This document shows, piece after piece, positions 510 to 33,808 of a stretch of 64,000 nucleotides of DNA (position 1 is the first letter of the stretch; each line of letters starts with the position of its first letter). The notes under the pieces were generated by a model, which did not search any database, was not told where the DNA came from, and saw only the letters and a program-made list of their open reading frames with translations. Source of the stretch: a virus. The DNA is taken from positions 1 through 64,000 of the IMG/VR virus record IMGVR_UViG_3300022173_000074, one strand, 5' to 3'. A program made the position numbers and the translations under genes.

Positions 510-704
510 ATGAGCATTATCTCTTACAAGCCTGAAGCCCTCCGCAACGCCACTAAGGCGCATGCTGTAAAAGAGCTTTCCACCATCGCCCCGCGCGCCC
601 CTAAAGGCGTCAAGGCTTCGAGTGCAAAGACTCAAGGCATGCTGTTTAGTGTCGCTCTTGTGGCGCTGGCTGCATTCTCAATCGCTCTTGTGATCTTTCA
701 ATAA
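510..704 (+). CDS. small protein with C-terminal hydrophobic helix (MLFSVALVALAAFSIALVIF)
   Basis: ORF with AAGGA-like RBS upstream; TM-like C-terminus. Confidence 0.4.
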   Translation: MSIISYKPEALRNATKAHAVKELSTIAPRAPKGVKASSAKTQGMLFSVALVALAAFSIALVIFQ

Positions 705-913
705 TGATTACGATTGAATCGCCTTCCCGCCTTATGGATCGTGTGACTTTCCGCAACATGGTTTTGTTAGCTCTGATGGAATGGCTAACAGGCGATGACG
801 CGCAAACGGTCATAGAGAAATATGAGCAAGCGATTCTAACGGCGCCTCTTGATCCTGAAGCGACTCCCGAATCAGTGATGCATGATATTTTGGACAAAGA
901 AGGAATCCGCTAA
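704..913 (+). CDS. hypothetical protein
   Basis: ORF tightly packed in + strand operon, start/stop overlap with neighbours. Confidence 0.4.
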   Translation: MITIESPSRLMDRVTFRNMVLLALMEWLTGDDAQTVIEKYEQAILTAPLDPEATPESVMHDILDKEGIR

Positions 914-1111
914 ATGATTACTCAGTGTAAAGAAGAATCCCGCGCTAACGCTATGCGCTTTGCGGCTGCAGCCAGTGTTGACTTTGAGCGCGCGGCGATT
1001 GCTAAGAAGCGCGGCGAATTCGATCTAGCCCATAGCTTCACGAGTGCAGGCCTTGCCGCGCTGGACGTTGCTCTAAGCTATAAGAAGGCAATGCAGGAGT
1101 CTGCGTCGTGA
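914..1111 (+). CDS. hypothetical protein
   Basis: ORF in operon, stop-start coupling. Confidence 0.4.
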   Translation: MITQCKEESRANAMRFAAAASVDFERAAIAKKRGEFDLAHSFTSAGLAALDVALSYKKAMQESAS

Positions 1112-1455
1112 CTGTCTACTTCCATATGACGAACGGTCTAAGAGGCTGTTACATCGCTGATGCGTCCTATGTGTGTAAGGTCGAATCGTTTCGCGAGTTT
1201 TGCAGGGAGATCAAAGAGGAAATTAATTGGCTTTCTTCTTTCGGCGAAAATCCTTGGCAATCGACTGCACAAATGCAATTTGCCTGGAAACATTTGCAGG
1301 GCAAAGACTGGCATGAGGTATGCGTTGCCACTGACAAAATAAACCGCGCTTATGGGCTTTGTGTCTCGCCTGCTACTGAGGCGGAATACAGAGAGTCGCA
1401 AGGCGATTCGAATGATGGTGAAACCGAACTGTTAGAGGACTCAGAAAATGGCTAA
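1108..1455 (+). CDS. hypothetical protein (acidic C-terminus)
   Basis: ORF, overlapping stop/start with neighbours. Confidence 0.45.
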   Translation: MTVYFHMTNGLRGCYIADASYVCKVESFREFCREIKEEINWLSSFGENPWQSTAQMQFAWKHLQGKDWHEVCVATDKINRAYGLCVSPATEAEYRESQGDSNDGETELLEDSENG

Positions 1456-1651
1456 GATCAAAACGACTCGGGATAGCGGCGGGATCATGCGCCAATGGCT
1501 ATCAGGCATTAAGGGGCGAACTGTCTCTAATGTGATTCGTGATCCTGGAGGAAATATCCGAATCAAATTGAGCGGCGGAGTCGAGCTTAACTTATGTGAG
1601 TCGCGCCTCTTCGATAAAACCGGCATGCGATTCGAAACAGGGGATTTATGA
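1448..1651 (+). CDS. hypothetical protein
   Basis: ORF in operon. Confidence 0.4.
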   Translation: MAKIKTTRDSGGIMRQWLSGIKGRTVSNVIRDPGGNIRIKLSGGVELNLCESRLFDKTGMRFETGDL

Positions 1652-2433
1652 TGCAGAAAGCTAAACGCTCAAAGACGGGGCGCGTTGATCGTGACTCCGA
1701 AGAATACAGGCGCGGCGCTGGCGCTTGGAATGCTCGTTTTGACTTTGTGAAAAACATCCGGGCAATGGTGAAAAACAGCGACTCATATTTCCAGGAGTCC
1801 TATGATTCGACCTATGCAGCGCTCGAAGCAACGCGCCTCGCCTATGGTACGTCACTAGAGATCAAGCGCGTGGAGAAGGCGCCTAAGAGCTTTATATATC
1901 AAGTCTGGCTCGATGGCTCGATGCATGGCGAATTCGAGAAAGCGCGGGGCGGGAAGTATCCTGTCTATAACTTTTATGCTGATGGAGTCGGACTCGTTCG
2001 TATTCCTGCATACTGGCAAGATGGCGCCTGCAAGTTTATGGAATGCAGCGTTATCGAGCAAATGCCGCGCTGTTTTATCGCTTTTGAATTCGCCCTAAGA
2101 CTGGCTGAATCCGAATGGCTGAATCCTGATGCACACACGCCAGCGCCGCAATATTCGGCCAAAGAGATAGAAGAGGCGCGTCAAGCGGTTTTCTTCGAGA
2201 ACGCCGCGCGCTCTAAAGAGCTGGCAAGCGTGAAGCCTTCAGACTTTCGAGTCGTTGATGGCGTGCGCCGCTATTCGGTTTCAATTGATCTAAGCTTTGA
2301 TGGTCATCAGCTACTATTGAAAGCGGCTCAAAAGGCTGGCGCTTTCAGAATGCACGATCAACTAAGCGGAATGGAAGTTTGCGCCGCATTGCATCACGTT
2401 ATCGAGCATGCGCTAAAGGAGTCCAGACAATGA
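1648..2433 (+). CDS. hypothetical protein
   Basis: 261-aa ORF, ATGA coupling to next gene. Confidence 0.5.
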   Translation: MMQKAKRSKTGRVDRDSEEYRRGAGAWNARFDFVKNIRAMVKNSDSYFQESYDSTYAALEATRLAYGTSLEIKRVEKAPKSFIYQVWLDGSMHGEFEKARGGKYPVYNFYADGVGLVRIPAYWQDGACKFMECSVIEQMPRCFIAFEFALRLAESEWLNPDAHTPAPQYSAKEIEEARQAVFFENAARSKELASVKPSDFRVVDGVRRYSVSIDLSFDGHQLLLKAAQKAGAFRMHDQLSGMEVCAALHHVIEHALKESRQ

Positions 2434-3179
2434 GCAACGCGCAAAGTTTGAACCTGAAAGGCCTTTACATTGCAGCGCGGAGTCGAACTAAGACTCCGGC
2501 CGCCGCGCTTGCAATGGCGCGAGATGCAATCGAAGGCGGGAAAAGTCTGTATAAGGACTATAAATATATTCAATTCAATCCGCCATCAGATCGCGGCTTG
2601 CGCTGGATTGAGAACGCGAACAAGGGACTCCGCTTCCATAACTATTGCGATTTAATCGCGCGCTCAATTCGACATACAGGCTGGTATATGGCTGATGCTG
2701 ATTTTGCGGAAACTATGCGCGGCGTTGTTTATCGCTTGCCGCATGGCCGATTCGTCGCGGGATATGTAGAGGGCTATGGGGGATCAAAAGGATTTACGCC
2801 GAATGATGACGGCGCCCGACTCGATATGTCATGCACCTATAGCGATGAACTGGACGCGGCTCTAGCGGCTGATTCAATCGCCGAACATTGGGCGGAAGAG
2901 TCGCGAGAATATAACGAGGCATGGCGCGCGGCTGATGACTGTTACAACAAAACAGGCGAGATCAAAAAACTCAGATCGAAGCGGATTCGCCTAGAGATGT
3001 TTTGCGGCGTTCTTCGCGCCATCGTGAAAAAGAAGCGCGGCGCCACTATCGAAAAAGCCGCGTTGCGTTGCGCCATGCATCGACTCGAATCATGCCGCGA
3101 AGAGATCAAAGAACTATCGAGCGAGATTGCGGAGCTAGAACGCAATTGGAAACATCACGACGGATTCACTAGCTACTAA
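2430..3179 (+). CDS. hypothetical protein
   Basis: Start moved to ATG 2430 (MSNAQ), overlapping TGA of upstream gene (ATGA). Confidence 0.5.
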   Translation: MSNAQSLNLKGLYIAARSRTKTPAAALAMARDAIEGGKSLYKDYKYIQFNPPSDRGLRWIENANKGLRFHNYCDLIARSIRHTGWYMADADFAETMRGVVYRLPHGRFVAGYVEGYGGSKGFTPNDDGARLDMSCTYSDELDAALAADSIAEHWAEESREYNEAWRAADDCYNKTGEIKKLRSKRIRLEMFCGVLRAIVKKKRGATIEKAALRCAMHRLESCREEIKELSSEIAELERNWKHHDGFTSY

Positions 3180-3206
3180 CAGCAACACACAAGAAAGGGA
3201 TTCAAC

Positions 3207-3785
3207 ATGGCTTCTAAATATGTTCGCGACACCAAAGGCGGGAAAGCGATTCGAGCAATCGTGATCTTGGACAAGCGCGGGAAATACGTTGCAAAGGTCC
3301 AAGCGCATTTTAGCGACAATCCAAACGGCTCTGTTTGTCTGGTCAATATCTGGCAAACTGAGAAAGCGGCGCAAGCATGCCTGAAAACGCAAATGCGCGA
3401 AGAGATCAAAGCGAAGCGCGCTAAGCCTTCAAGCATGCCCATAGAGGACTTTGGGCGCGCGGCTTATGATCGTTTCAGCTTTCAGCATGGAAAGGCTGGC
3501 GGCTATGGTTATGACAAATACACGGCCGCCCTATCTCATTTGTGGATTGATGGAATCCGCCTAAGCGATCATTGCGGCGAACAATTGAAACCGCCAAAAG
3601 GCGCAAAGGTATTCCCGCGCGATTATGCGGCGCCGAAAGGCTATAGGCTGGCAAACTTCGTTAGCGCGAAGAATTGCGAGTCGCGTGGATTGCCGCCCGA
3701 AACTGAGGGCTATACATCATGCCATCGTGACTCCGGTTTGGATTATCTGAAGGCGATAGGCTATCAGATAATCGAAGCGATATAA
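3207..3785 (+). CDS. hypothetical protein
   Basis: 192-aa ORF, GGGATTC RBS-like upstream. Confidence 0.5.
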   Translation: MASKYVRDTKGGKAIRAIVILDKRGKYVAKVQAHFSDNPNGSVCLVNIWQTEKAAQACLKTQMREEIKAKRAKPSSMPIEDFGRAAYDRFSFQHGKAGGYGYDKYTAALSHLWIDGIRLSDHCGEQLKPPKGAKVFPRDYAAPKGYRLANFVSAKNCESRGLPPETEGYTSCHRDSGLDYLKAIGYQIIEAI

Positions 3786-3813
3786 TTTAGTCAGTATAAA
3801 GAGGACTCAGAAA

Positions 3814-4629
3814 ATGACTCAGTTTCTTGTAACGAGGATTCCGTTTGGCGGATTCTATGACTCGCTATGGTCCGGCATGCTCGACTCCGAAGAAGAGCAA
3901 TTTTGCGACTATGAGGCGGAATACAGACAGACAGAAGAGGGAATCCCTAGCGAGCTTCAGCTAGACCGCGATGCGATATTTGACGCAATCGACGACTCGC
4001 GAGATTACAAGGCGCAATGCCTAGCCCTCGCTAAAACGTATGTTTCCCAATTCGACAATTGGGCTGGCGGCGAGGCTAACGAATCTCGTTCTCGATATGG
4101 CTGGACGTACACACAAGCGAAGGGATCACACAAAGCGCGATTCCGTGTGCCTTCTCTAGGCCTGCAATTCGAGTCGATGGATTCGCCGCGTGAATATAAT
4201 TTCACGACTGATAGAGTCTATGCAAAGATCAGCCTCGCCACTTGCCGCCGGCTTTTCAAAAAGAGCAAACAAGAGAATCACGAAACGCTGAAGGCGCGGA
4301 TTCGTGCGTCCTATACATCGTGCGATGGCTTTAGCTCGCATTACTCGAATCAGCTTTGTGACTGGCTAGAGAAGCCGCTCATTGATTGGGATCACAATGA
4401 GCTTTGCACGTTGATCGAAGCCGCTTGCAATTGGACTCGCGATTGCGAGATGGAAATTTATCAGGATATTCCCGACTCCGGGCATAGCGAGTGGAGCGAG
4501 GGAATCGATTGGCCGAAATATCAAAGCTTGATCGATGCGAAGCGCGAAGAGAAGGCGGAAATATTGCGCGCTGAAGGAAAAGAGATTCCGCATTTTCGAT
4601 GCGACAAGACTCCAGAGCTGGCGCTATGA
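3814..4629 (+). CDS. hypothetical protein
   Basis: 271-aa ORF. Confidence 0.5.
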   Translation: MTQFLVTRIPFGGFYDSLWSGMLDSEEEQFCDYEAEYRQTEEGIPSELQLDRDAIFDAIDDSRDYKAQCLALAKTYVSQFDNWAGGEANESRSRYGWTYTQAKGSHKARFRVPSLGLQFESMDSPREYNFTTDRVYAKISLATCRRLFKKSKQENHETLKARIRASYTSCDGFSSHYSNQLCDWLEKPLIDWDHNELCTLIEAACNWTRDCEMEIYQDIPDSGHSEWSEGIDWPKYQSLIDAKREEKAEILRAEGKEIPHFRCDKTPELAL

Positions 4630-4955
4630 AAAAGGCCTGGAATGTTACCTTTGAAATAGTAACGGAAGAAAGCGCGGAAATTGGCGACGCTGAGTCGCGC
4701 GGCTTTATTATCGAAGGCGCGACACTTCGCGAAGCGCTGGCGGCTTTTTCATTTTGTGGCGTAGCAGAATACGCCAGCGCCATCAGCGCCGACTCCTCGC
4801 ATATAAGCGTAAGCAATCCGCCCCGATGGTTCGACTCAGAGACAAGCCAAAACTTCGAGACAGGCGAGAACGAGACTCGCGCGCTGCATATCCCTGAAGG
4901 CGTGACTCCAGCGTCAAGCATGCGCCTCGCGCGCCTTCTAGGCGTCATAGGCTAG
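4626..4955 (+). CDS. hypothetical protein
   Basis: Start at ATG 4626 (MKKAWN) overlapping upstream stop. Confidence 0.45.
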   Translation: MKKAWNVTFEIVTEESAEIGDAESRGFIIEGATLREALAAFSFCGVAEYASAISADSSHISVSNPPRWFDSETSQNFETGENETRALHIPEGVTPASSMRLARLLGVIG

Positions 4956-5031
4956 ACGCTCCACCATAAGCCAGCTAGGCGCCCGTGCATCACGCATAGG
5001 GCGCCTTTCGGCGTATGAGGCTTAGAAACAT

Positions 5032-5259
5032 ATGAGCAAAACACATCGCCGCCAGTGGCGGCTTTCAGTCTTTGAGATTGGGGAGTATGGCGAGTCGAAG
5101 TGGACTCGCGTTTACTCTTGCCCAAAGAACGCGAGGCGCGGCGCTGCAAGGATAGCGCGGCGCCGTTTGACGTGGCGCGACTCTGAAGCTGGCGTGCTTA
5201 CTCGCGCGCGGCTGATCTTGTTTGATGTTCGCCGCGTCGATAGCGGGGCGCCCGCATGA
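5032..5259 (+). CDS. hypothetical basic protein
   Basis: ORF preceded by GC-rich hairpin region. Confidence 0.4.
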   Translation: MSKTHRRQWRLSVFEIGEYGESKWTRVYSCPKNARRGAARIARRRLTWRDSEAGVLTRARLILFDVRRVDSGAPA

Positions 5260-5513
5260 CAATCGTTGGCGAGATACTAGACACCCTTAAGCGCCTCCCT
5301 GAATTCGATTGCGCGCGCTTGATCGTTTGCGATTGGGAATCGTGCGCCGCGCCTTCGCGCTGGATTGTTTCAATTCAGAGCGCGGGGCGCGTTGTCTTAG
5401 AGGCGCGCGGCGCTAGTGCTGATGCAGCGCTAGAGGCTGCACTCACTAAGGCGCAAGAGCTTGCAGGCGCCCGGCGCCAGCGCATTAGATCGAAGGCGGA
5501 TTTATTGGATTAG
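5256..5513 (+). CDS. hypothetical protein
   Basis: ORF with ATGA overlap to upstream gene. Confidence 0.45.
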   Translation: MTIVGEILDTLKRLPEFDCARLIVCDWESCAAPSRWIVSIQSAGRVVLEARGASADAALEAALTKAQELAGARRQRIRSKADLLD

Positions 5514-5715
5514 ATCGAAGCCGCGAAGCGCGGCGCTTCAGACAATCGAGCGCGATTCAGAAGAGGCTTAGGCCTGGCATGAGTCGTTAAAAATTCATGC
5601 AGAATCACGCATGGATTCTGACTGTCTGAATCCGCACGGATCGAAATAAGGCAGCGGCCGGCTGGCTGCAGCCCGATGCGTCCGGTCGCCGGCAAAAATC
5701 GAGATCGAGGGGCCT

Positions 5716-5815
5716 GGCCCCACCACCGGGGAAATCGGAACCCCCCACCGTTAGGGAAATCCATTGCTACCTACCACCGGGGAAATCGGACTAGCCCACC
5801 ACCAGGGAAATCCAG
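5716..5815. repeat. iteron-like array: 4 direct copies of CCACC(N3)GGGAAATC(C/G)(G)A spaced 22-29 bp
   Basis: Copies at about 5721, 5745, 5772, 5797, read directly. Hairpins upstream at 5590-5650 and a TTGACA-like hexamer downstream at 5830. Confidence 0.7.
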
Positions 5816-5894
5816 GGTCACGCCCAGGTTGACAGTCTGGCATGGGGTGTGCAATGCAGCGGACAGGGCAGGAAACAGTGCATTGGAGTGTATT

Positions 5895-6011
5895 ATGATG
5901 GAATTCTTATTTGGCGTTACCACTGGCGCTGTGCTGGTGCATTTCTTCCCGTCGCTGAACGTCCCGGTCAAAATGGCCGTGGATAAAATCAAGGAATGGA
6001 TGACAAACTAA
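5895..6011 (+). CDS. possible small hydrophobic peptide (MMEFLFGVTTGAVLVHFFPSL...)
   Basis: Short ORF after iteron region with GGAG upstream. The longer ORF 5676..6011 is rejected because it only translates the iterons. Confidence 0.25.
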   Translation: MMEFLFGVTTGAVLVHFFPSLNVPVKMAVDKIKEWMTN

Positions 6012-6256
6012 TGCGCAAGCAAGGTATTGCGATGATTGCGGCCGCCGCTGCACTGGCTATGGCTGGTGGCGGCGTGCCTATCGAACCACGGCGCGGTCGC
6101 ATGAAGCCGGCCGACCCCGAGAGCACAGGCGCTAAGCTCGCCAAGAGCTTCGCCCGTGTCATGGAGAAGCGCACACCGGCTGATGTGCTGCGCATCCAGA
6201 AGGCCGAAGAGAAGCGTCAGCGAAAGGCTGCACGCCGCCGCGAGATCGGCCAATGA
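5996..6256 (+). CDS. hypothetical protein (Ala-rich N-terminus, basic C-terminus)
   Basis: ORF. Confidence 0.4.
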   Translation: MDDKLMRKQGIAMIAAAAALAMAGGGVPIEPRRGRMKPADPESTGAKLAKSFARVMEKRTPADVLRIQKAEEKRQRKAARRREIGQ

Positions 6257-6702
6257 GCTTCATTCGACTATCTGTCCTTGCTCAAGCGGACCTCTACATC
6301 ACGAAGAATACGGGTGAAGATTTCGCGCATATCGAATGGAACAATAACGGCATCACACAGCATCTAGGACGCATCCGTGCGAACGAGGTCGTGGGCCTAA
6401 TTCAATTCCTCCAAAACGAATTTGCTCCAACGGTTTTGCCAAAATCGGATTTGCCGAATCGGAAGCCAGATCAATTTGGTTCTACGGATTCGGAAATTTT
6501 CGATTTCCATAAACGCTCCGAGATGGCCGCAGGCTTCGGTCAGTCCATCGATCCGTACGCTATGGTCGCCATGGCTATGCGTTGCGGACAGATGGAAGCT
6601 GCGCTGAAGTCGATCAAAGCTTACGCCGAGAACGCTGTCATGGGCGCGTGGCGCGGAACTGTTCAAGAGATGGCGGCACTAGGCTTGCAATCGAAATCCT
6701 AG
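6253..6702 (+). CDS. hypothetical protein
   Basis: ORF, contains internal copy of the CGGATTCGG/GGAAAT motif at 6475-6501. Confidence 0.4.
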   Translation: MSFIRLSVLAQADLYITKNTGEDFAHIEWNNNGITQHLGRIRANEVVGLIQFLQNEFAPTVLPKSDLPNRKPDQFGSTDSEIFDFHKRSEMAAGFGQSIDPYAMVAMAMRCGQMEAALKSIKAYAENAVMGAWRGTVQEMAALGLQSKS

Positions 6703-13521: not shown

Positions 13522-13606
13522 GTCAACTATCGGTTGACTGGTGGCGTAAGACGTGCATATGCTTTCCACATCTGGGACAATCCCAGCCTGTAGAAAGAGA
13601 GTACCT

Positions 13607-14719
13607 ATGAACGCTAATATTAACCAAACACCTTTGGACGTTAAATTCTTCGAGTCGTTTTCGATGCAGAAGAACACGCGCATTTCAAAGGGTGTGACGA
13701 CCACTGATTTCTTCGGCCCAATCGCATACCGCGAGCAAGTCGTCGCCATGCTGAAGTCCAGCCTGGGGAACCGGGAGATCAAACGCGGCAAAGTCAAAGA
13801 GATGTTTGCCAAGATCACGAGCGGCAAGTGGGATCACGCCGTCGCGTCTCTGAAGTTCTATATCGATCCACGCGGCAAGATCAGTCTGATGGGCGGCCAC
13901 CACCGTCTTGAAGCTTTGCTCGCTGCCTTCGATGCCGATCCCCTGTTCGCCGGCGTGGACATCGTCTGCACGGTAAGCCCGAACAAGGACATCGCGATCT
14001 ACGATAACGAAGCCGCCGTTGCCTCTATGACGGATCATTTTATGATGGCGCAGAACTCGTTCCTGCGTGAAAAGTCGGAAGCCGCTGCGGGCGCGGCTCT
14101 GATCGTCTTCGTATCGCGCTATCTGATGGGCGGCATCGATCTGCCATCCGATCAGAAGATCACCATCGGCAACAAATACCAGAACGAAATTCGTCGCGCG
14201 GTTTCCGAGCTTCGCGGCGCCGACAAAGCAACACGCAAGTCGCTGGTGCCTCTGCATATCATTTCGCAGATCGCCGGGCAGCAAATGGTGTTGACTGATT
14301 TCGTTCTGCCGGTCGCCACTATGGCGGTTCGTCCGGGCACGGCGGCCTACCTCTACCACAAGGCCATGCACGGCTTCTGGCCGAAGGCGACCTACAAGCG
14401 GATTACTTCGGACGGCGAGACGATCCCTATGGATGCATTCCCGAAGGGCAAGGGCGAAGGCTATATGGGCCTTCTGTTGCATCTTGCGAACATCGCATCG
14501 CAAGGCGCGGAAATCACGAAGCTCAGCGGCTATACTAGCAGCCCTCTGAAGCCTGCGTTCTCCGTTTGGCGGCGTCATCTCTATCGGTCGATCCCCGGTC
14601 AGGATTTTCTGAAATGCTTCGGCTGGACCGCCGACATGGAGAAGACCAAGCTGGATAAGGTTGAAGCCAAACGGTCTAATCGCCGTAGAGCTGTTGACGA
14701 AAATCAGCCTTCCGCGTAA
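13607..14719 (+). CDS. ParB/Srx-like nuclease-domain protein
   Basis: ISLMGGHHRLEAL matches the ParB N-terminal GxxHR motif; start at ATG 13607 with AGAAAGAGAG RBS. Confidence 0.6.
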   Translation: MNANINQTPLDVKFFESFSMQKNTRISKGVTTTDFFGPIAYREQVVAMLKSSLGNREIKRGKVKEMFAKITSGKWDHAVASLKFYIDPRGKISLMGGHHRLEALLAAFDADPLFAGVDIVCTVSPNKDIAIYDNEAAVASMTDHFMMAQNSFLREKSEAAAGAALIVFVSRYLMGGIDLPSDQKITIGNKYQNEIRRAVSELRGADKATRKSLVPLHIISQIAGQQMVLTDFVLPVATMAVRPGTAAYLYHKAMHGFWPKATYKRITSDGETIPMDAFPKGKGEGYMGLLLHLANIASQGAEITKLSGYTSSPLKPAFSVWRRHLYRSIPGQDFLKCFGWTADMEKTKLDKVEAKRSNRRRAVDENQPSA

Positions 14720-14740: not shown

Positions 14741-14785
14741 GAAGCCCCCGGCACGCCTGAAAAACAGCCGGGGGCTTTTCTTTAT
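14741..14785 (+). terminator. rho-independent terminator (agcccccgg-N16-ccgggggct followed by TTTTCTTTAT)
   Basis: Perfect 9-bp GC stem and T-run read from sequence, just after the ParB-like gene. Confidence 0.7.
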
Positions 14786-14805
14786 CAAGCACTTACAGGG
14801 CGGGC

Positions 14806-14835
14806 TTGCATTTCCCGCGATCTGCCGCGTAATAG
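14806..14835 (+). promoter_or_regulatory. sigma70-like promoter candidate (TTGCAT-18-TAATAG)
   Basis: Hexamers read from sequence upstream of gene 14857. Confidence 0.3.
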
Positions 14836-14856
14836 GGGCTTGCCCCGGAGACGACC

Positions 14857-15306
14857 ATGCGCCCTGACGCCGCCTTTCAAGAGTTCGCCAAGCGACATTT
14901 GCCGAAGGGCTGGAAGGTCAAATACTGGCGCACGCGGCCTTATGTGTTGAACGTCCGTGGATACCGAGGCCAGGCCTGCGCGGCGCTCTGTGACAGCGGC
15001 CCGAAGATTATCTGGATGAACCCTACCCAGTTCACCGAACCCCACCAGGACCCCTATTGGACATTCGCCCACGAGGTCGGCCACGCCCGCGATCCGATGT
15101 TGGAGATCATCGGGTATCCCGAATACCTTGCCGAATATTTCGCCGAGCGCGAGGCCGCCGCGATCTTCCGAGCTGACGGCCGCCGCGTTAGTCGCGAGAA
15201 CGTGCGCCAAGGTAAACAGTACGTGCAACGCATGGCCTACCACGAGGGCTTGCAATTCCAAGAGCTGCGCGCGGACGTACGCCGCTGGATCGGCTCAGTG
15301 TACTAG
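14857..15306 (+). CDS. putative zinc metallopeptidase (HEVGH motif)
   Basis: WTFAHEVGHARDP contains HExxH; 149 aa (SprT/ImmA-like size). Confidence 0.45.
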   Translation: MRPDAAFQEFAKRHLPKGWKVKYWRTRPYVLNVRGYRGQACAALCDSGPKIIWMNPTQFTEPHQDPYWTFAHEVGHARDPMLEIIGYPEYLAEYFAEREAAAIFRADGRRVSRENVRQGKQYVQRMAYHEGLQFQELRADVRRWIGSVY

Positions 15307-17692: not shown

Positions 17693-19561
17693 ATGGCTGC
17701 AGCCGGTAAGAAAATCCCGTACAAAGAATGCCAGCGCATTGAGCGCTTTCTGAAGAAGAACAAAGGCAATCGCCGCGCCGCCGCTGAAGAGATGCAGGTG
17801 CCGATCACAACCCTGAAGGGCTGGATCGAGAAGGGCCGGCAGCAAGGGTTCGTGTTCAGTCCGCCGCAAGATTTGAAGACGCTAGAGCGCGTAACGAACG
17901 TCACTGAAGCCGAATGTATGGATGCCTGGGGCGTCTACGAACGCTACGGCTACAACGCGGCGGCCGCCGCAGAAGCGATGAACGTCCACATCGGGACCAT
18001 CGAAACCCGCGTCAAGAAAGCCGAACATAAGTACGGCATGCGCCGCCGAAATCTAGGTGTGCAGGACGCCCGCGATGCGGTGCCGCTGAAACGTCCGAAG
18101 AAGGGTGAAGTCAAACGCTATCTTCTGACAGCGGCGCAGAACAACACGAAAATTCACGAACCGACTTGGTTCAGTTTGTTGCAGCTCGCGGAGTATTACG
18201 GTGCAGAAGTCAAAGTCGCTACCTTCACCTACGCACCGCAAGACAGCGCCGGTTCCGAGAAGCGGAACAAAGAGCGCGCGTGGAAAGATCGCGGCCATAA
18301 GGTTGTGGACCGCTGGTACGATCATCATATTGAAGATCACATCTCCGACGCCTTTGAACAGCTCGCGCCCGGCCTCGTGTGGTGCGGTCATACCAACACT
18401 CTGCCGACCGCTGTTGATCCGCTGCGCGGCACCGAGAACCTGAACGGCCGGCACTCCGGCGTCTTCCCGCACACGCGGATGGAAATGCGGTCCATTGCGA
18501 CCTCGCCCGGCGAAGCGACTAAGTTCAACTGGACGACCGGCGCCGTCACTCTGCGAAACTACAAGCAGATGCGTGCCGGTATCGTCGCCGAGTTCTACCA
18601 TTGCTTCGGCGCTTTGCTTGTCGAAGTCGATGACGCTGGCAACTGGTGGTGCCGCCAATTGAACGCCACGAGTGAAGGCGTGATCTGCGACATCGATCTG
18701 TACTCTACCCCTGAAGGCGTCTTCGAGGGCGAGCCAGTGGAAGCGATCAAGTACGGCGACATCCATAAGGCCAACATCGATCCGGTCATCCAGGCGGCTA
18801 CCTGGGGCGAAGGCGGCATGGTAGACGTACTCCGTCCGAAGCGTCAGTTCTTGGACGATCTGTTGGACTTCGAGTCTGGCAGCCACCACAATCGCCGCGA
18901 CCCTCACAAAATGTACGAGCTGCAACACTTCGGACGCAACAGCGTGTGGAACGAAGTGTTGGACGCCGGCGCGTTCGTCGACTCCATTCACCGCGTCTAC
19001 CCTGACGGCACGGAGTCGGAAGAGATCGTCAACGACTCCAATCACGACCGCCATCTGGACCGCTGGCTGAAGGAAGTGCATTGGCACGAAGACTTATCGA
19101 ACGCACGGACCTTGCTTCAGTGCAACGATGCCTGGCTTAGCGCAATTGAGAACGGCGATGCGGATGAATTCGTTCCGCTCGAATGGCTCTGGCGCAAGAT
19201 GGGAGTCGCCAAGTCCGCGTTCGTTATGAACATCCGGTCAGAGCACAAGCGGAAGCTCTCCTACGTGATCTGCGCCGACAAGAGCGGCGGGATCGAAATG
19301 GCCCTGCACGGAGACTTAGGCCCGAATGGTTCTCGCGGCGGCCCGCGTAACCTGTCAAAGCTGGGGCAGAAGAACGTCATCGGCCACAGCCACTCGCCCG
19401 GCATCTTCGGCGGCACGTACGTTGCAGGTGTCACGGGCAAGATGCGGTTAGGCTATAATGTTGGCCCAGGTTCCTGGGGTCACGCGCATGTTGTGGTCTA
19501 CGCGAATGGTAAACGCCAAGTGATCTTGTTCTGGAACGGCAAGCCTTGGGCTGACAGATAG
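17693..19561 (+). CDS. large protein with two N-terminal HTH-like regions; C-terminal region has weak metallophosphoesterase-like motifs
   Basis: NRRAAAEEMQVPITTLKGWIEKG and NAAAAAEAMNVHIGTIETRVKKAE (sigma r4/Mor-like HTH); later YGDIHK, HGDLGPNG, IGHSHSPG, WGHAHVV. Confidence 0.4.
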   Translation: MAAAGKKIPYKECQRIERFLKKNKGNRRAAAEEMQVPITTLKGWIEKGRQQGFVFSPPQDLKTLERVTNVTEAECMDAWGVYERYGYNAAAAAEAMNVHIGTIETRVKKAEHKYGMRRRNLGVQDARDAVPLKRPKKGEVKRYLLTAAQNNTKIHEPTWFSLLQLAEYYGAEVKVATFTYAPQDSAGSEKRNKERAWKDRGHKVVDRWYDHHIEDHISDAFEQLAPGLVWCGHTNTLPTAVDPLRGTENLNGRHSGVFPHTRMEMRSIATSPGEATKFNWTTGAVTLRNYKQMRAGIVAEFYHCFGALLVEVDDAGNWWCRQLNATSEGVICDIDLYSTPEGVFEGEPVEAIKYGDIHKANIDPVIQAATWGEGGMVDVLRPKRQFLDDLLDFESGSHHNRRDPHKMYELQHFGRNSVWNEVLDAGAFVDSIHRVYPDGTESEEIVNDSNHDRHLDRWLKEVHWHEDLSNARTLLQCNDAWLSAIENGDADEFVPLEWLWRKMGVAKSAFVMNIRSEHKRKLSYVICADKSGGIEMALHGDLGPNGSRGGPRNLSKLGQKNVIGHSHSPGIFGGTYVAGVTGKMRLGYNVGPGSWGHAHVVVYANGKRQVILFWNGKPWADR

Positions 19562-31738: not shown

Positions 31739-33808
31739 TCACAGGACGATTATGATGCCTCGCCGAGCGCCTACCGCTGGTGTCCCGCCGCCTTCCCCTG
31801 AGTAGAAGACGACGTTCCCGATTGCGCAAGACTGAACACCGCCGCCGTGTGTCGTGGCGACTTCCCACGCCGGATCGTCGCCAGCATCGGAAACATATTT
31901 ATAGGCCACATAGATCGCCATGTATCCCGCGACATCGCCTGCGTTGCCTTCTCGGATCAACGTCGTCCAGCCGGAGGTTGCGGTCGGGACAGTTGCGGAG
32001 TTACCGTCAAAGAAGAAGCCGAGCACAAGCTGATTGGTTTCCGTCGTCAGGATCGGGTCCGCGTCTGTGACATCTACGGCGCCCGCTCCCGTTGCATCGC
32101 GACGAAGCGAGTGCGCAGCGATGATGTCACCGATGCTATTGGAGTCTGCGTCTCCGACCAGCGTGTTCTCGAATTCGATTACGAACGCACGCCAGAAGCC
32201 GCCGTTGCCCGTTGTCAGTTCTGGGAGCGCCGCCGTGTCGCCCGGCTGAACCCAGCGGTACGCCGCTTTGAATTGCGGCTCCGTGGCCGTGTAGTTATCT
32301 ATCGCCGTCCACGCGCTTGTGTTCAGTGGATCGCCTACGAACGTGCTGAAGAACGCTATCAATAAGTTCCCGGCGACAGGCGCGGTGTCGAGTGTAACTA
32401 TCGCGTCATTGAAAGAACCCGACCCCTTCTTTGTTTGTTGGATCGAGAACACAGGGAAGTCGTTCGAAGCGCTGTTCGAATTAAGTCCATTGCTGTTGCT
32501 GTTCGAATCAAAGCCGCCAGAGTTGGAGTTGCTGTCGAAGCCGCCGCTGTTGCTGTTCGAATCAAAGCCGCCAGAGTTGGAGTTCGAATCAAATGACGGA
32601 TCGAGATCGACGTTCGAAAGCACGACGCCGAAGTGACGGGCGTTCGCGGTCGCGCCGAAAACGACTTTCATGTTGATGAAGTCGGTCGCGACTATTGGCG
32701 TGTAGATCGCGTGTTCGTTTACGTGTTTCGGCAATCCGGTCCAATTCTTCGTAAGCGAGCTATCCGCTCCGTTGACTCGCAGAGTTATCGTGCCTGTCGA
32801 AGAAGCGCTACTCTGGTAGAAGTATAGGTCTTTCGCGAAACAGTCGAAAGGCACACGGAGTCCGGTCCCTGTCTCAGAAGAATTCAGTACGTTGGCGGCT
32901 GATCCGCTGCCGAACGTACCGTACTGAGTGCCGCTTGCCGCGTTAGCTGTGCCGCCCGCCATAAGGGGGCTTTCGTCTGCGGTGCCCTGGAAGCGCACGT
33001 TGAAGCGGCGGATCGTAAGCGTGCCCGCGCCGGAGCCGGGGGCGACCTTGTATCCGACTTCGTCGTCCTGCGCGATGGTTGCGCTGTTCGTGGTGTCTTC
33101 GAAGAGGCCGGTAGCTCCCGCACCAATCGTAATATCCAGCGCAGTGTCCGATCCGTTCACGTTCAAATATACGTGAGAGTCGGTTCCGCGTCCGTTCGTG
33201 GTGACGTAAACTTGCAGCGAAGAGAACGTACCGGCGCACGGGACTTGCGGCTGGTATTCATCGGCTAGAGAGGTTGAGGAATTAAACTGAGAGTCGCCGC
33301 ACACAGGCAGGTAGGTCGCCGTGGTTCCTGTGCCGCTGTAGAGGAAGTTCCCTGTGCTGACCAGACCGAGGTATTGAACAGCATTACCAGAAGCCATCGT
33401 CTGTTGGCACACGATACCGGAGATGACTAGCGATGCTCCGTTGCCGCCAGCCAGCGTCCAAGATGCGCAGACGAGATCGCCGTCCGCGATGCTGTCGGTG
33501 TTCGATGCGTCCTCAAAGTATCCCGTTGCGCCAGCGCCTACCGTTACAGTCAGGTTTCCGTCCGCACCGTTCTTTCGGATTTTGAAAACAGAGCTGCCGG
33601 CGCGCGCGTTCGATATGACATTGACGCCAAGCTTAGACAGCGTTGACGCGCCACGGAACTTTACCTGCGCCAGGGCTTCGCTGGTGTTGGTCGTGTGGAT
33701 GTCGCAATTTATGAGCGGCCAGAAATCGCCGCTGGTGTTATTCGTAGCGAACGTCGATCCCGCATTGATCGGAGCTATGAGAAGGGAACTACCGGGTTGG
33801 AGTGCCAT
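31739..33808 (-). CDS. tail fibre/tail spike-like protein with internal DSNSNSGGF tandem repeats
   Basis: 689 aa, Gly/Thr/Ser-rich beta-type composition. Confidence 0.55.
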   Translation of the reverse strand: MALQPGSSLLIAPINAGSTFATNNTSGDFWPLINCDIHTTNTSEALAQVKFRGASTLSKLGVNVISNARAGSSVFKIRKNGADGNLTVTVGAGATGYFEDASNTDSIADGDLVCASWTLAGGNGASLVISGIVCQQTMASGNAVQYLGLVSTGNFLYSGTGTTATYLPVCGDSQFNSSTSLADEYQPQVPCAGTFSSLQVYVTTNGRGTDSHVYLNVNGSDTALDITIGAGATGLFEDTTNSATIAQDDEVGYKVAPGSGAGTLTIRRFNVRFQGTADESPLMAGGTANAASGTQYGTFGSGSAANVLNSSETGTGLRVPFDCFAKDLYFYQSSASSTGTITLRVNGADSSLTKNWTGLPKHVNEHAIYTPIVATDFINMKVVFGATANARHFGVVLSNVDLDPSFDSNSNSGGFDSNSNSGGFDSNSNSGGFDSNSNSNGLNSNSASNDFPVFSIQQTKKGSGSFNDAIVTLDTAPVAGNLLIAFFSTFVGDPLNTSAWTAIDNYTATEPQFKAAYRWVQPGDTAALPELTTGNGGFWRAFVIEFENTLVGDADSNSIGDIIAAHSLRRDATGAGAVDVTDADPILTTETNQLVLGFFFDGNSATVPTATSGWTTLIREGNAGDVAGYMAIYVAYKYVSDAGDDPAWEVATTHGGGVQSCAIGNVVFYSGEGGGTPAVGARRGIIIVL
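32465..32610. repeat. 27-bp tandem repeat x4-5 (encodes FDSNSNSGG on - strand)
   Basis: Read from sequence, inside CDS 31739..33808. Confidence 0.7.

Follow-up and report, generated by a model that had tools for sequence, protein, structure and literature searches.

A four-copy direct-repeat array beside promoter-like elements in a Casjensviridae-like phage genome: candidate regulator-binding sites

The repeat array and the gap in which it lies

We have analysed a 64,000-nucleotide stretch of viral DNA (positions 1 to 64,000 of IMG/VR record IMGVR_UViG_3300022173_000074, hereafter the window), which represents 64 kb of a 68,795-bp metagenome (JGI) contig, ∼4.8 kb of which lies outside the window. 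On sequence similarity the window is a Casjensviridae-like tailed phage, in which rightward genes extend from ∼510 to 24015 and leftward genes from 64000 down to 24012. The element under study is an array of four direct repeats. It occupies a non-coding gap with a low-GC orphan-gene block on its left and the next rightward operon on its right; for this region a first-pass annotation had offered three readings: a replication origin, a partition site or a multi-operator regulatory region. The features of the gap and of the first gene past it are as follows.

5514–5894, no strand assigned: non-coding gap of 381 bp between the low-GC orphan-gene block (510–5513) and the next rightward operon
5600–5633, no strand assigned: two overlapping 21-bp dyads, CAGAATC-N7-GATTCTG (5600–5620) and GGATTCTGAC-T-GTCTGAATCC (5613–5633)
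5709–5721, no strand assigned: GC palindrome GGGGCC-T-GGCCCC, adjoining repeat copy 1
5719–5739, + strand: repeat copy 1, type A, CCCACCACCGGGGAAATCGGA
5744–5763, + strand: repeat copy 2, type B, with the most degenerate upstream half, CCCACCGTTAGGGAAATCCA
5770–5790, + strand: repeat copy 3, type A, CCTACCACCGGGGAAATCGGA
5795–5814, + strand: repeat copy 4, type B, CCCACCACCAGGGAAATCCA
5829–5834, + strand: TTGACA, a −35-type hexamer with a 6/6 match
5838–5853, + strand: sigma-54-like −24/−12 element TGGCATG-N4-GTGCA (GG-N10-GC), overlapping the sigma-70-type spacer
5885–6011, + strand: ribosome-binding site (RBS) GGAG (5885–5888) and the first gene past the gap, starting at ATG 5895 and encoding a 38-amino-acid hydrophobic peptide, MMEFLFGVTTGAVLVHFF...

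The array is real and far beyond chance, as several scans confirm. The octamer GGGAAATC occurs exactly four times on the + strand of the window, at 5729, 5754, 5780 and 5805, and its reverse complement does not occur in it. Four matches to the extended motif CACC-N3-R-GGGAAATC, with 0–1 mismatch, are found at 5721–5812, two mismatches being required elsewhere in the window, and the total was reached by none of 100 shuffles. A scan of the window for any 8-mer present at least three times at a spacing of 12–60 bp returned, besides the array, a single tandem repeat within the coding sequence of a tail gene (32471–32593). The four copies described in the first-pass annotation are thereby confirmed, but their spacing is 25, 26 and 25 bp and not the 22–29 bp given there; similarly, its CCACC-N3 motif is present, but within a longer unit of 20–21 bp that is arranged in two 51-bp halves.

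This unit reads CCYACCACC-R-GGGAAATC-(GGA/CA), with GGA terminating copies 1 and 3 and CA terminating copies 2 and 4, so that the array is a 51-bp (A+B) unit repeated twice, the halves being 82% identical. Copy 2 deviates in that GTT replaces the second ACC. The 8-bp core is the same in all four copies and the spacers vary. Each unit is bipartite, the centres of its two conserved blocks lying ∼11–12 bp apart, and the four units together cover ∼96 bp (5719–5814). Elements of this kind, promoter-proximal arrays of binding sites, are well known; the sequence itself is previously unseen.

The duplicated structure raises the question of whether the array has any sequence-specific function. A recent doubling of 51 bp, itself derived from a doubled 25-bp unit, would produce the same (A+B)x2 arrangement, and such an origin, or a transcribed RNA element, would be compatible with the lack of a homologue elsewhere and with the terminator-like hairpins that are present on the minus strand to the left of the array. 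However, the 8-bp core is intact in 4/4 copies, in contrast to the diverged spacers, a pattern that favours selection acting on the motif. The identical core, the diverged spacers and the absence of codon bias in the differences combined point to conservation at the level of DNA. RNA folding of the region on both strands was no better than that of shuffles (z −0.8 and −0.1), Rfam yielded no match across the window at gathering thresholds and nothing meaningful in the gap at relaxed thresholds, and the window holds no tRNAs. A structured RNA is ruled out by these three results, and the absence of any sequence-specific function is rather improbable.

Open reading frames (ORFs) do run across the gap, as the first-pass annotation had noted in calling them spurious, and we concur that they are probably so. 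The 51-bp unit is in frame with ORF 5676–6011, yet the eight differences between the halves are distributed 3/3/2 over codon positions 1/2/3 and concentrate in the spacers, and ATG 5676 has no RBS, whereas ATG 5895 has GGAG 6 nt upstream. The 5895 gene is translationally coupled to the next gene, 6011–6256, through TAATG (6009–6013).

Both hairpins reported upstream of the array in the earlier annotation are present, at 5600–5620 and 5613–5633, with a stability only marginally above that of shuffles (z −1.3 to −1.4; 17–21 of 200 shuffles fold equally well). Together with a T-run, the first dyad resembles a minus-strand terminator. Five GANTC (CcrM-type) sites cluster at 5554–5633, three of them in dyad half-sites of alternating orientation. 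The most AT-rich patch of the gap, 5588–5627, coincides with the hairpins; it is short, with 75% AT over 20 bp and 62% over 40 bp, ranks in the top 0.3–1.2% of windows and lies 90–130 bp from the array.

Separately, the palindrome GGCTGCAGCC is over-represented in the window, with eight exact copies at 170, 395, 964, 5664, 17695, 44825, 53027 and 61662, four of which fall within the first 5.7 kb and one of these inside the gap. When ≤1 mismatch is allowed, 11 copies are found against 3.3 expected, a number reached by none of 100 shuffles. The palindrome could be an operator or a site related to methylation or restriction. Other interpretations of the gap were discarded. A CRISPR-like array is incompatible with a 25-bp period, too short for repeat plus spacer, and G-quadruplex, rut-site and CRISPR-repeat-mimic readings were dropped on inspection of the sequence alone, their defining patterns being missing.

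Promoter-like elements and a proposed regulatory role

The array lies on the same strand as all neighbouring genes and ends 14 bp before the exact TTGACA at 5829–5834, which confirms the TTGACA-like hexamer that the first-pass annotation had placed after the repeats. The centre of copy 4 is ∼27 bp upstream of the centre of this hexamer, roughly at −60 with respect to the transcription start predicted from this geometry. Candidate −10 elements are poor, either CAATGC at 5852–5857 with a 17-bp spacer or TGCAAT at 5850–5855 with a 15-bp spacer, and a consensus scan leaves the hexamer off its list of sigma-70 promoters, its −10 being weak. All of the repeats, each on the + strand, lie within ∼150 bp of a putative core promoter reading into the next gene, and a comparable arrangement recurs in four related phages, AH2, DSS3-P1, RHph_X2_30 and AXY1.

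These observations suggest that the array comprises regulator-binding sites controlling the promoter of the second rightward transcription unit, a reading to which we give about an even chance. The multi-operator regulatory region is thus the best of the three options in the first-pass annotation, given the shared strand, the position 14 bp upstream of a perfect −35 hexamer of the first gene past the gap and the analogues in relatives. The array would provide four sites in the same orientation for a single protein that recognises specific DNA sequence and is most likely encoded by the phage. Each site would have two parts, CCYACCACC and GGGAAATC, separated by about one turn of the helix, as would befit an oligomer arranged head to tail or a reader that contacts DNA through two subdomains. 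The sites would span roughly −145 to −50 of a promoter consisting of the −35 hexamer at 5829–5834 and leading to the first gene at 5895, and their occupancy would set promoter activity. Activation, as an early-to-middle switch, is favoured because the −35 is perfect but the −10 poor, because the proximal site, at about −60, occupies a position classical for class I activators, and because no site lies over the core promoter; alternatively, occupancy might repress the promoter, or the bound protein might serve as a roadblock against transcription arriving from the upstream block. In the Chi-like phage JS26, RNA sequencing placed an orphan-gene cluster among the early genes and the clusters for DNA metabolism among the middle genes (PMC8754663). 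For the array described here, we infer protein binding, promoter activity and its regulation, the sign of that regulation and the identity of the binder alike.

Several observations weigh against this interpretation. The recognisable candidate binders are confined to the N-terminus of an A1-like protein encoded 12 kb away and to orphan proteins. The −10 element is poor, the transcription start is a prediction, and the sigma-54-like motif constitutes a competing core promoter. A mean spacing of 25.3 bp would place successive sites on different faces of the helix, which is unusual for cooperative class I activators. The collections scanned contain no homologue of the array with which it could be compared. 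Finally, a 40-bp AT-rich patch is situated ∼90 bp upstream of the array, and the analogous arrays of related phages could themselves be origins.

The sigma-54-like element suggests a different role for the repeats, in which an enhancer-binding protein would use them as upstream activator sites to drive TGGCATG-N4-GTGCA (5838–5853). This element is the sole match in the window to the degenerate consensus TGGCAYRNNNNKTGCW (0.18 expected), its GG-N10-GC spacing is correct and it is located 42 bp before the ATG. Sigma-54-like motifs are also enriched on the coding strand of the rightward arm, with 7 in genes against 2.1 expected from codon shuffles (P ∼0.005), and absent from that of the leftward arm, 0 against 4.0, but the scoring threshold was picked after the site had been seen. 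The plain consensus with ≤2 mismatches is not enriched (22 against 16.4). GG-N10-GC sites occur on the + strand at 1719, 5838, 6674, 8731, 9058, 14466, 15938, 19411 and 21847, five of them <160 bp upstream of gene starts.

The proteins scanned for domains in this work were those of the rightward arm, those of the 56.9–62.5 kb block and a sample of those of the leftward arm. Among them, no AAA+ Sigma54_activat domain was detected, although the host might supply an activator. The repeats are direct and too close to the promoter for looping, the proximal one being 23 bp from the −24 element. In addition, the analogous promoters of AH2 and RHph_X2_30 are of the sigma-70 type, and DSS3-P1 lacks a −24/−12 motif. 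An enhancer function for the repeats is consequently very unlikely in our estimation. By a shade less probable still is the wider scheme in which the rightward (middle) genes run from sigma-54-type promoters, with the repeats as the enhancer of the first, that is, a host RpoN programme with an unconventional activator; a candidate for the latter would be a tandem Fis-type helix-turn-helix (HTH) N-terminus fused to an A1-like nuclease.

That protein, the product of 17693–19561, is equally the candidate reader of the array under the regulator-binding interpretation. It is a T5 A1-like protein (phrog_1745), ∼37–42% identical to A1-like proteins of alphaproteobacterial phages, and carries an extra N-terminal tandem of two three-helix, Fis-type HTH-like domains (amino acids 10–50 and 72–114) that shorter homologues, such as the 424-amino-acid protein of DSS3-P1, do not possess. 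A single-sequence structural model returned the two three-helix domains with a predicted local distance difference test score (pLDDT) of ∼90 per domain. Sequence matches of the N-terminus to Fis-, PucR- and transposase-type HTHs are weak and all below significance; a Foldseek search with the model retrieved Fis, PucR and LuxR types, all at E > 0.4, and there was no PDB sequence match. The A1-like N-terminus is the sole recognisable HTH-type candidate binder of the window. The proteins flanking the gap have no Pfam or PHROG function.

Genomic setting and arrays in related phages

Assignment to a Casjensviridae-like phage is reflected in the large terminase, which shares 52% identity with the enzyme of Rhizobium phage RHph_X2_30 and 46–48% with those of other Casjensviridae. 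The leftward arm encodes lysis, tail, head and portal proteins, terminase (terS and terL at 54.8–57.5 kb), methyltransferases, an SNF2 helicase and a family-A polymerase. The gap coincides with a step in GC content, from ∼0.51 in the first 5.5 kb, where the encoded proteins have no Pfam or PHROG function, to 0.55–0.58 on its right. The block to the right opens with small membrane proteins and an SPFH protein, followed further on by methyltransferases, MazG, the T5 A1-like protein, a GapR-like protein and a cysteine dioxygenase. The left block (block A) is inverted with respect to its counterpart in AH2, BcepNazgul, AXY1 and DSS3-P1, where its genes are directed at the end of the genome, with the neighbouring arm behind them.

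Homologues of the array itself were not recovered. Exact-pattern scans of IMG/VR, JGI/ENA metagenomes and GTDB genomes yielded only tandem repeats unrelated to the array, coincidences within coding sequence (ABC-transporter motifs) and chance matches, and blastn of the array against phage records yielded nothing. One match in Caulobacteraceae, which has the same A/B subtypes and repeats at 25 bp, falls within a gene, and we took it to be coincidental. Synteny through the flanks was equally uninformative: the 6253–6702 product matches only itself, the 5256–5513 product has no phage match, homologues of the SPFH protein (62–71% identity) occur in unrelated phages without the array, and a walk along the nearest IMG/VR relative gained 1.9 kb and no more. 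In the left block, gene 2430–3179 has distant homologues in Burkholderia phages AH2 and BcepNazgul, Achromobacter phage AXY1 and Aeromonas phages, all of them Casjensviridae, which made a positional comparison of the gaps possible. The predicted structure of its product, a beta domain with a long coiled coil (pLDDT 79), had no significant fold match in the PDB and offered no functional clue.

Phage-specific direct-repeat arrays near sigma-70-type promoter-like sites recur at block boundaries in Casjensviridae. The arrays compared are positional analogues with unrelated sequences, not sequence homologues. In AH2, a 566-bp gap between the left-block counterpart and the ParB-like/MazG/dioxygenase arm contains ∼7 direct repeats of 29 bp (GAAGGGCACC...), beginning 28 bp upstream of the −35 hexamer in TTGACA-18-TAGAAT, a promoter directed into that arm; TTGACA-18-TAAGAT forms a second one, pointing the opposite way. 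The ∼7 x 29-bp repeats (GAAGGGCACCGACAGCCCG..., about 5750–5920 of the record) sit between two strong divergent sigma-70-type promoters. The word 'repeats' is absent from the text of the AH2 genome paper, and the array is not mentioned there. In the Ruegeria phage DSS3-P1, a 434-bp gap within a co-oriented arm has four direct repeats of 34 bp and five of 16 bp, after which come TTGACA, an RBS and an ATG. This gap (5390–5823 of the stretch examined) also includes an alternating purine-pyrimidine tract, and more arrays are present at the start of the record (17–264).

The first 560 bp of RHph_X2_30 contain ∼12–13 copies of ATCACAGCGTTACG as counted by eye (seven exact copies of the core 8-mer by scan), one of which is within the spacer of TTGACT-16-TATGCT. 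Three 39-bp tandem units and, in a gap at 5.5–6.3 kb, two 24-nt repeats 27 bp apart are also present. The annotated first coding sequence of this phage (159–758) overlaps the ATCACAGCGTTACG array, and the annotation may be wrong. AXY1 has four copies of CCAAAGTACG and two of a 20-mer in its divergent gap. The divergent gap of BcepNazgul is without an array, its repeats (CGTGTCTCCGTGTCACT) being <∼300 bp from the annotated cos end, beside the 3′ end of the homologous orphan-gene block. TTGACA/TTGACT promoter-like sites adjoin the arrays in three of the four relatives compared (AH2, DSS3-P1, AXY1 and RHph_X2_30), and several Casjensviridae genomes carry more than one kind of array.

The large arrays of the relatives could equally be origins, and the same question applies to the array in the window, in which the four repeats could be iterons for a phage initiator that melts the nearby AT-rich hairpin patch (5588–5627). 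Four direct repeats of ∼20 bp over ∼96 bp are in keeping with iterons, for which at least three repeats of 17–22 bp are expected; the AT-rich patch is within 90–130 bp and the region is non-coding. On the other hand, scanning 5414–5914 revealed no DnaA, CtrA or IHF sites, and the rightward-arm proteins scanned include no Rep, initiator or helicase-loader domain, although orphan proteins may be novel initiators. The replication genes (polymerase and SNF2 helicase) are at the far end of the window, and the spacing of 25.3 bp departs from the ∼22 bp, or two helical turns, that is usual. The GC-skew analysis suggested in the first-pass annotation, performed over the 64-kb window, placed the minimum of cumulative G−C at ∼600, in another non-coding region, with no inflection at 5.4–6.0 kb, skew being a weak criterion in phages. 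Moreover, DSS3-P1 and RHph_X2_30 each have several different arrays, too many for all to be origins. Hence the origin proposed earlier is possible but weak: the AT-rich patch speaks for it, the missing DnaA, CtrA and IHF sites, initiator, skew inflection and iteron spacing speak against it, and we regard it as unlikely.

The whole-window maximum of cumulative G−C is at ∼54,800. The region of the minimum, 1–509 (to ∼600), is likewise non-coding and rich in short repeats, direct as well as inverted, with two copies each of CTCACACCCT and GCAGGCCTTCCC and with CCATGGGCTGCAGCC accompanied by its complement 215 nt away. It is a better candidate than the 5.7-kb gap for an origin or an early promoter.

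Direct repeats of this size are also typical of sites for other DNA transactions, such as small-terminase binding (cosB or pac) or the arm sites of a recombinase or transposase, and the CGTGTCTCCGTGTCACT repeats of BcepNazgul lie near an annotated cos end beside the homologous orphan-gene block. In the window, however, the terminase genes are 51 kb from the array, the Chi/Nazgul-type cos core GCGCAGAGC is absent both from the gap and from the non-coding DNA of the window, and no integrase or transposase was encountered among the proteins scanned. We give a packaging or recombination site very little credence.

A centromere-like partition site serving a plasmid-prophage lifestyle would account for repeated sites, and a protein with a ParB/Srx-type GGHHR motif is encoded at 13553–14719. 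The first-pass annotation had labelled this protein ParB-like, a label that does not hold beyond the motif (GGHHRLEAL): the protein has no Pfam match (E ≤ 0.01) and no PDB sequence match, is encoded 8 kb from the array, and resembles the annotated ParB-like gp28 of AH2 in nothing but the motif. No ParA, ParM or TubZ was found among the proteins scanned, and the window carries no sign of lysogeny. The parS-like option of that annotation is accordingly unsupported, lacking both a ParA-type ATPase and a family-level match for its 'ParB-like' protein, and we consider partition extremely improbable. Downstream of the same gene, in the 14745–15306 region, is a strong intrinsic terminator, GCCCCCGGC...GCCGGGGGC-TTTT; the + strand ORF 14857–15306 carries an HEVGH metalloprotease motif and competes with a longer minus-strand ORF.

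Significance and comparison with known systems

If the repeats are regulator-binding sites as proposed, the array would mark the point at which a Casjensviridae-like phage switches from its early orphan-gene block to the gene block that follows, and CCYACCACC-R-GGGAAATC would represent a short, unique DNA bait for the regulator. The occurrence of phage-specific arrays at block boundaries in several members of the family suggests a common regulatory layout in which specificity evolves rapidly.

Activator sites in direct repeat are familiar upstream of sigma-70 promoters, as in the four TorR 'tor boxes' of torC and the site arrays of PhoB and OmpR. Several same-orientation sites within ∼150 bp upstream, a proximal site near −60 and an imperfect promoter are common to these and the present array. 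In contrast, their units are ∼10–11 bp long and in helical phase, whereas those described here are 20–21 bp long and repeat at 25.3 bp, and no protein of the response-regulator type was identified here. The enhancer (upstream activator sequence) sites of NtrC, NifA and DctD at sigma-54 promoters are usually dyads located 80–150 bp upstream. The likeness consists of a cluster of sites upstream of a GG-N10-GC element, but here the sites are direct repeats, the nearest of them 23 bp from the −24 element, and no activator was found among the proteins scanned.

Iteron origins are exemplified by lambda ori, with its four O-binding repeats, and by plasmid iterons, which the array resembles in having four ∼20-bp repeats within ∼100 bp and an AT-richer patch nearby. 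The lambda iterons differ in being dyad-symmetric and inside the initiator gene, and plasmid iterons in being phased at ∼22 bp beside rep and DnaA boxes; none of these properties was found in the gap.

Within the Casjensviridae, the arrays of AH2, DSS3-P1 and RHph_X2_30 share with the present one their position in gaps between early-arm gene blocks, their proximity to TTGACA/TTGACT sites and their phage-specific sequences. They differ from it in having no sequence similarity, in copy number and period, and in module order, block A being inverted here with respect to AH2 and BcepNazgul. To our knowledge, none of these three phages' arrays has been studied experimentally. A further comparison is with Gp36 of phage D29 (PMC12266134). 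Gp36 is a MerR-like repressor, whereas nothing MerR-like was seen in the window, the two sets of repeats are unrelated in sequence and regulation by our array may be of either sign; the likeness is that of a small phage protein which binds GC-rich direct repeats in non-coding DNA and regulates the genes downstream.

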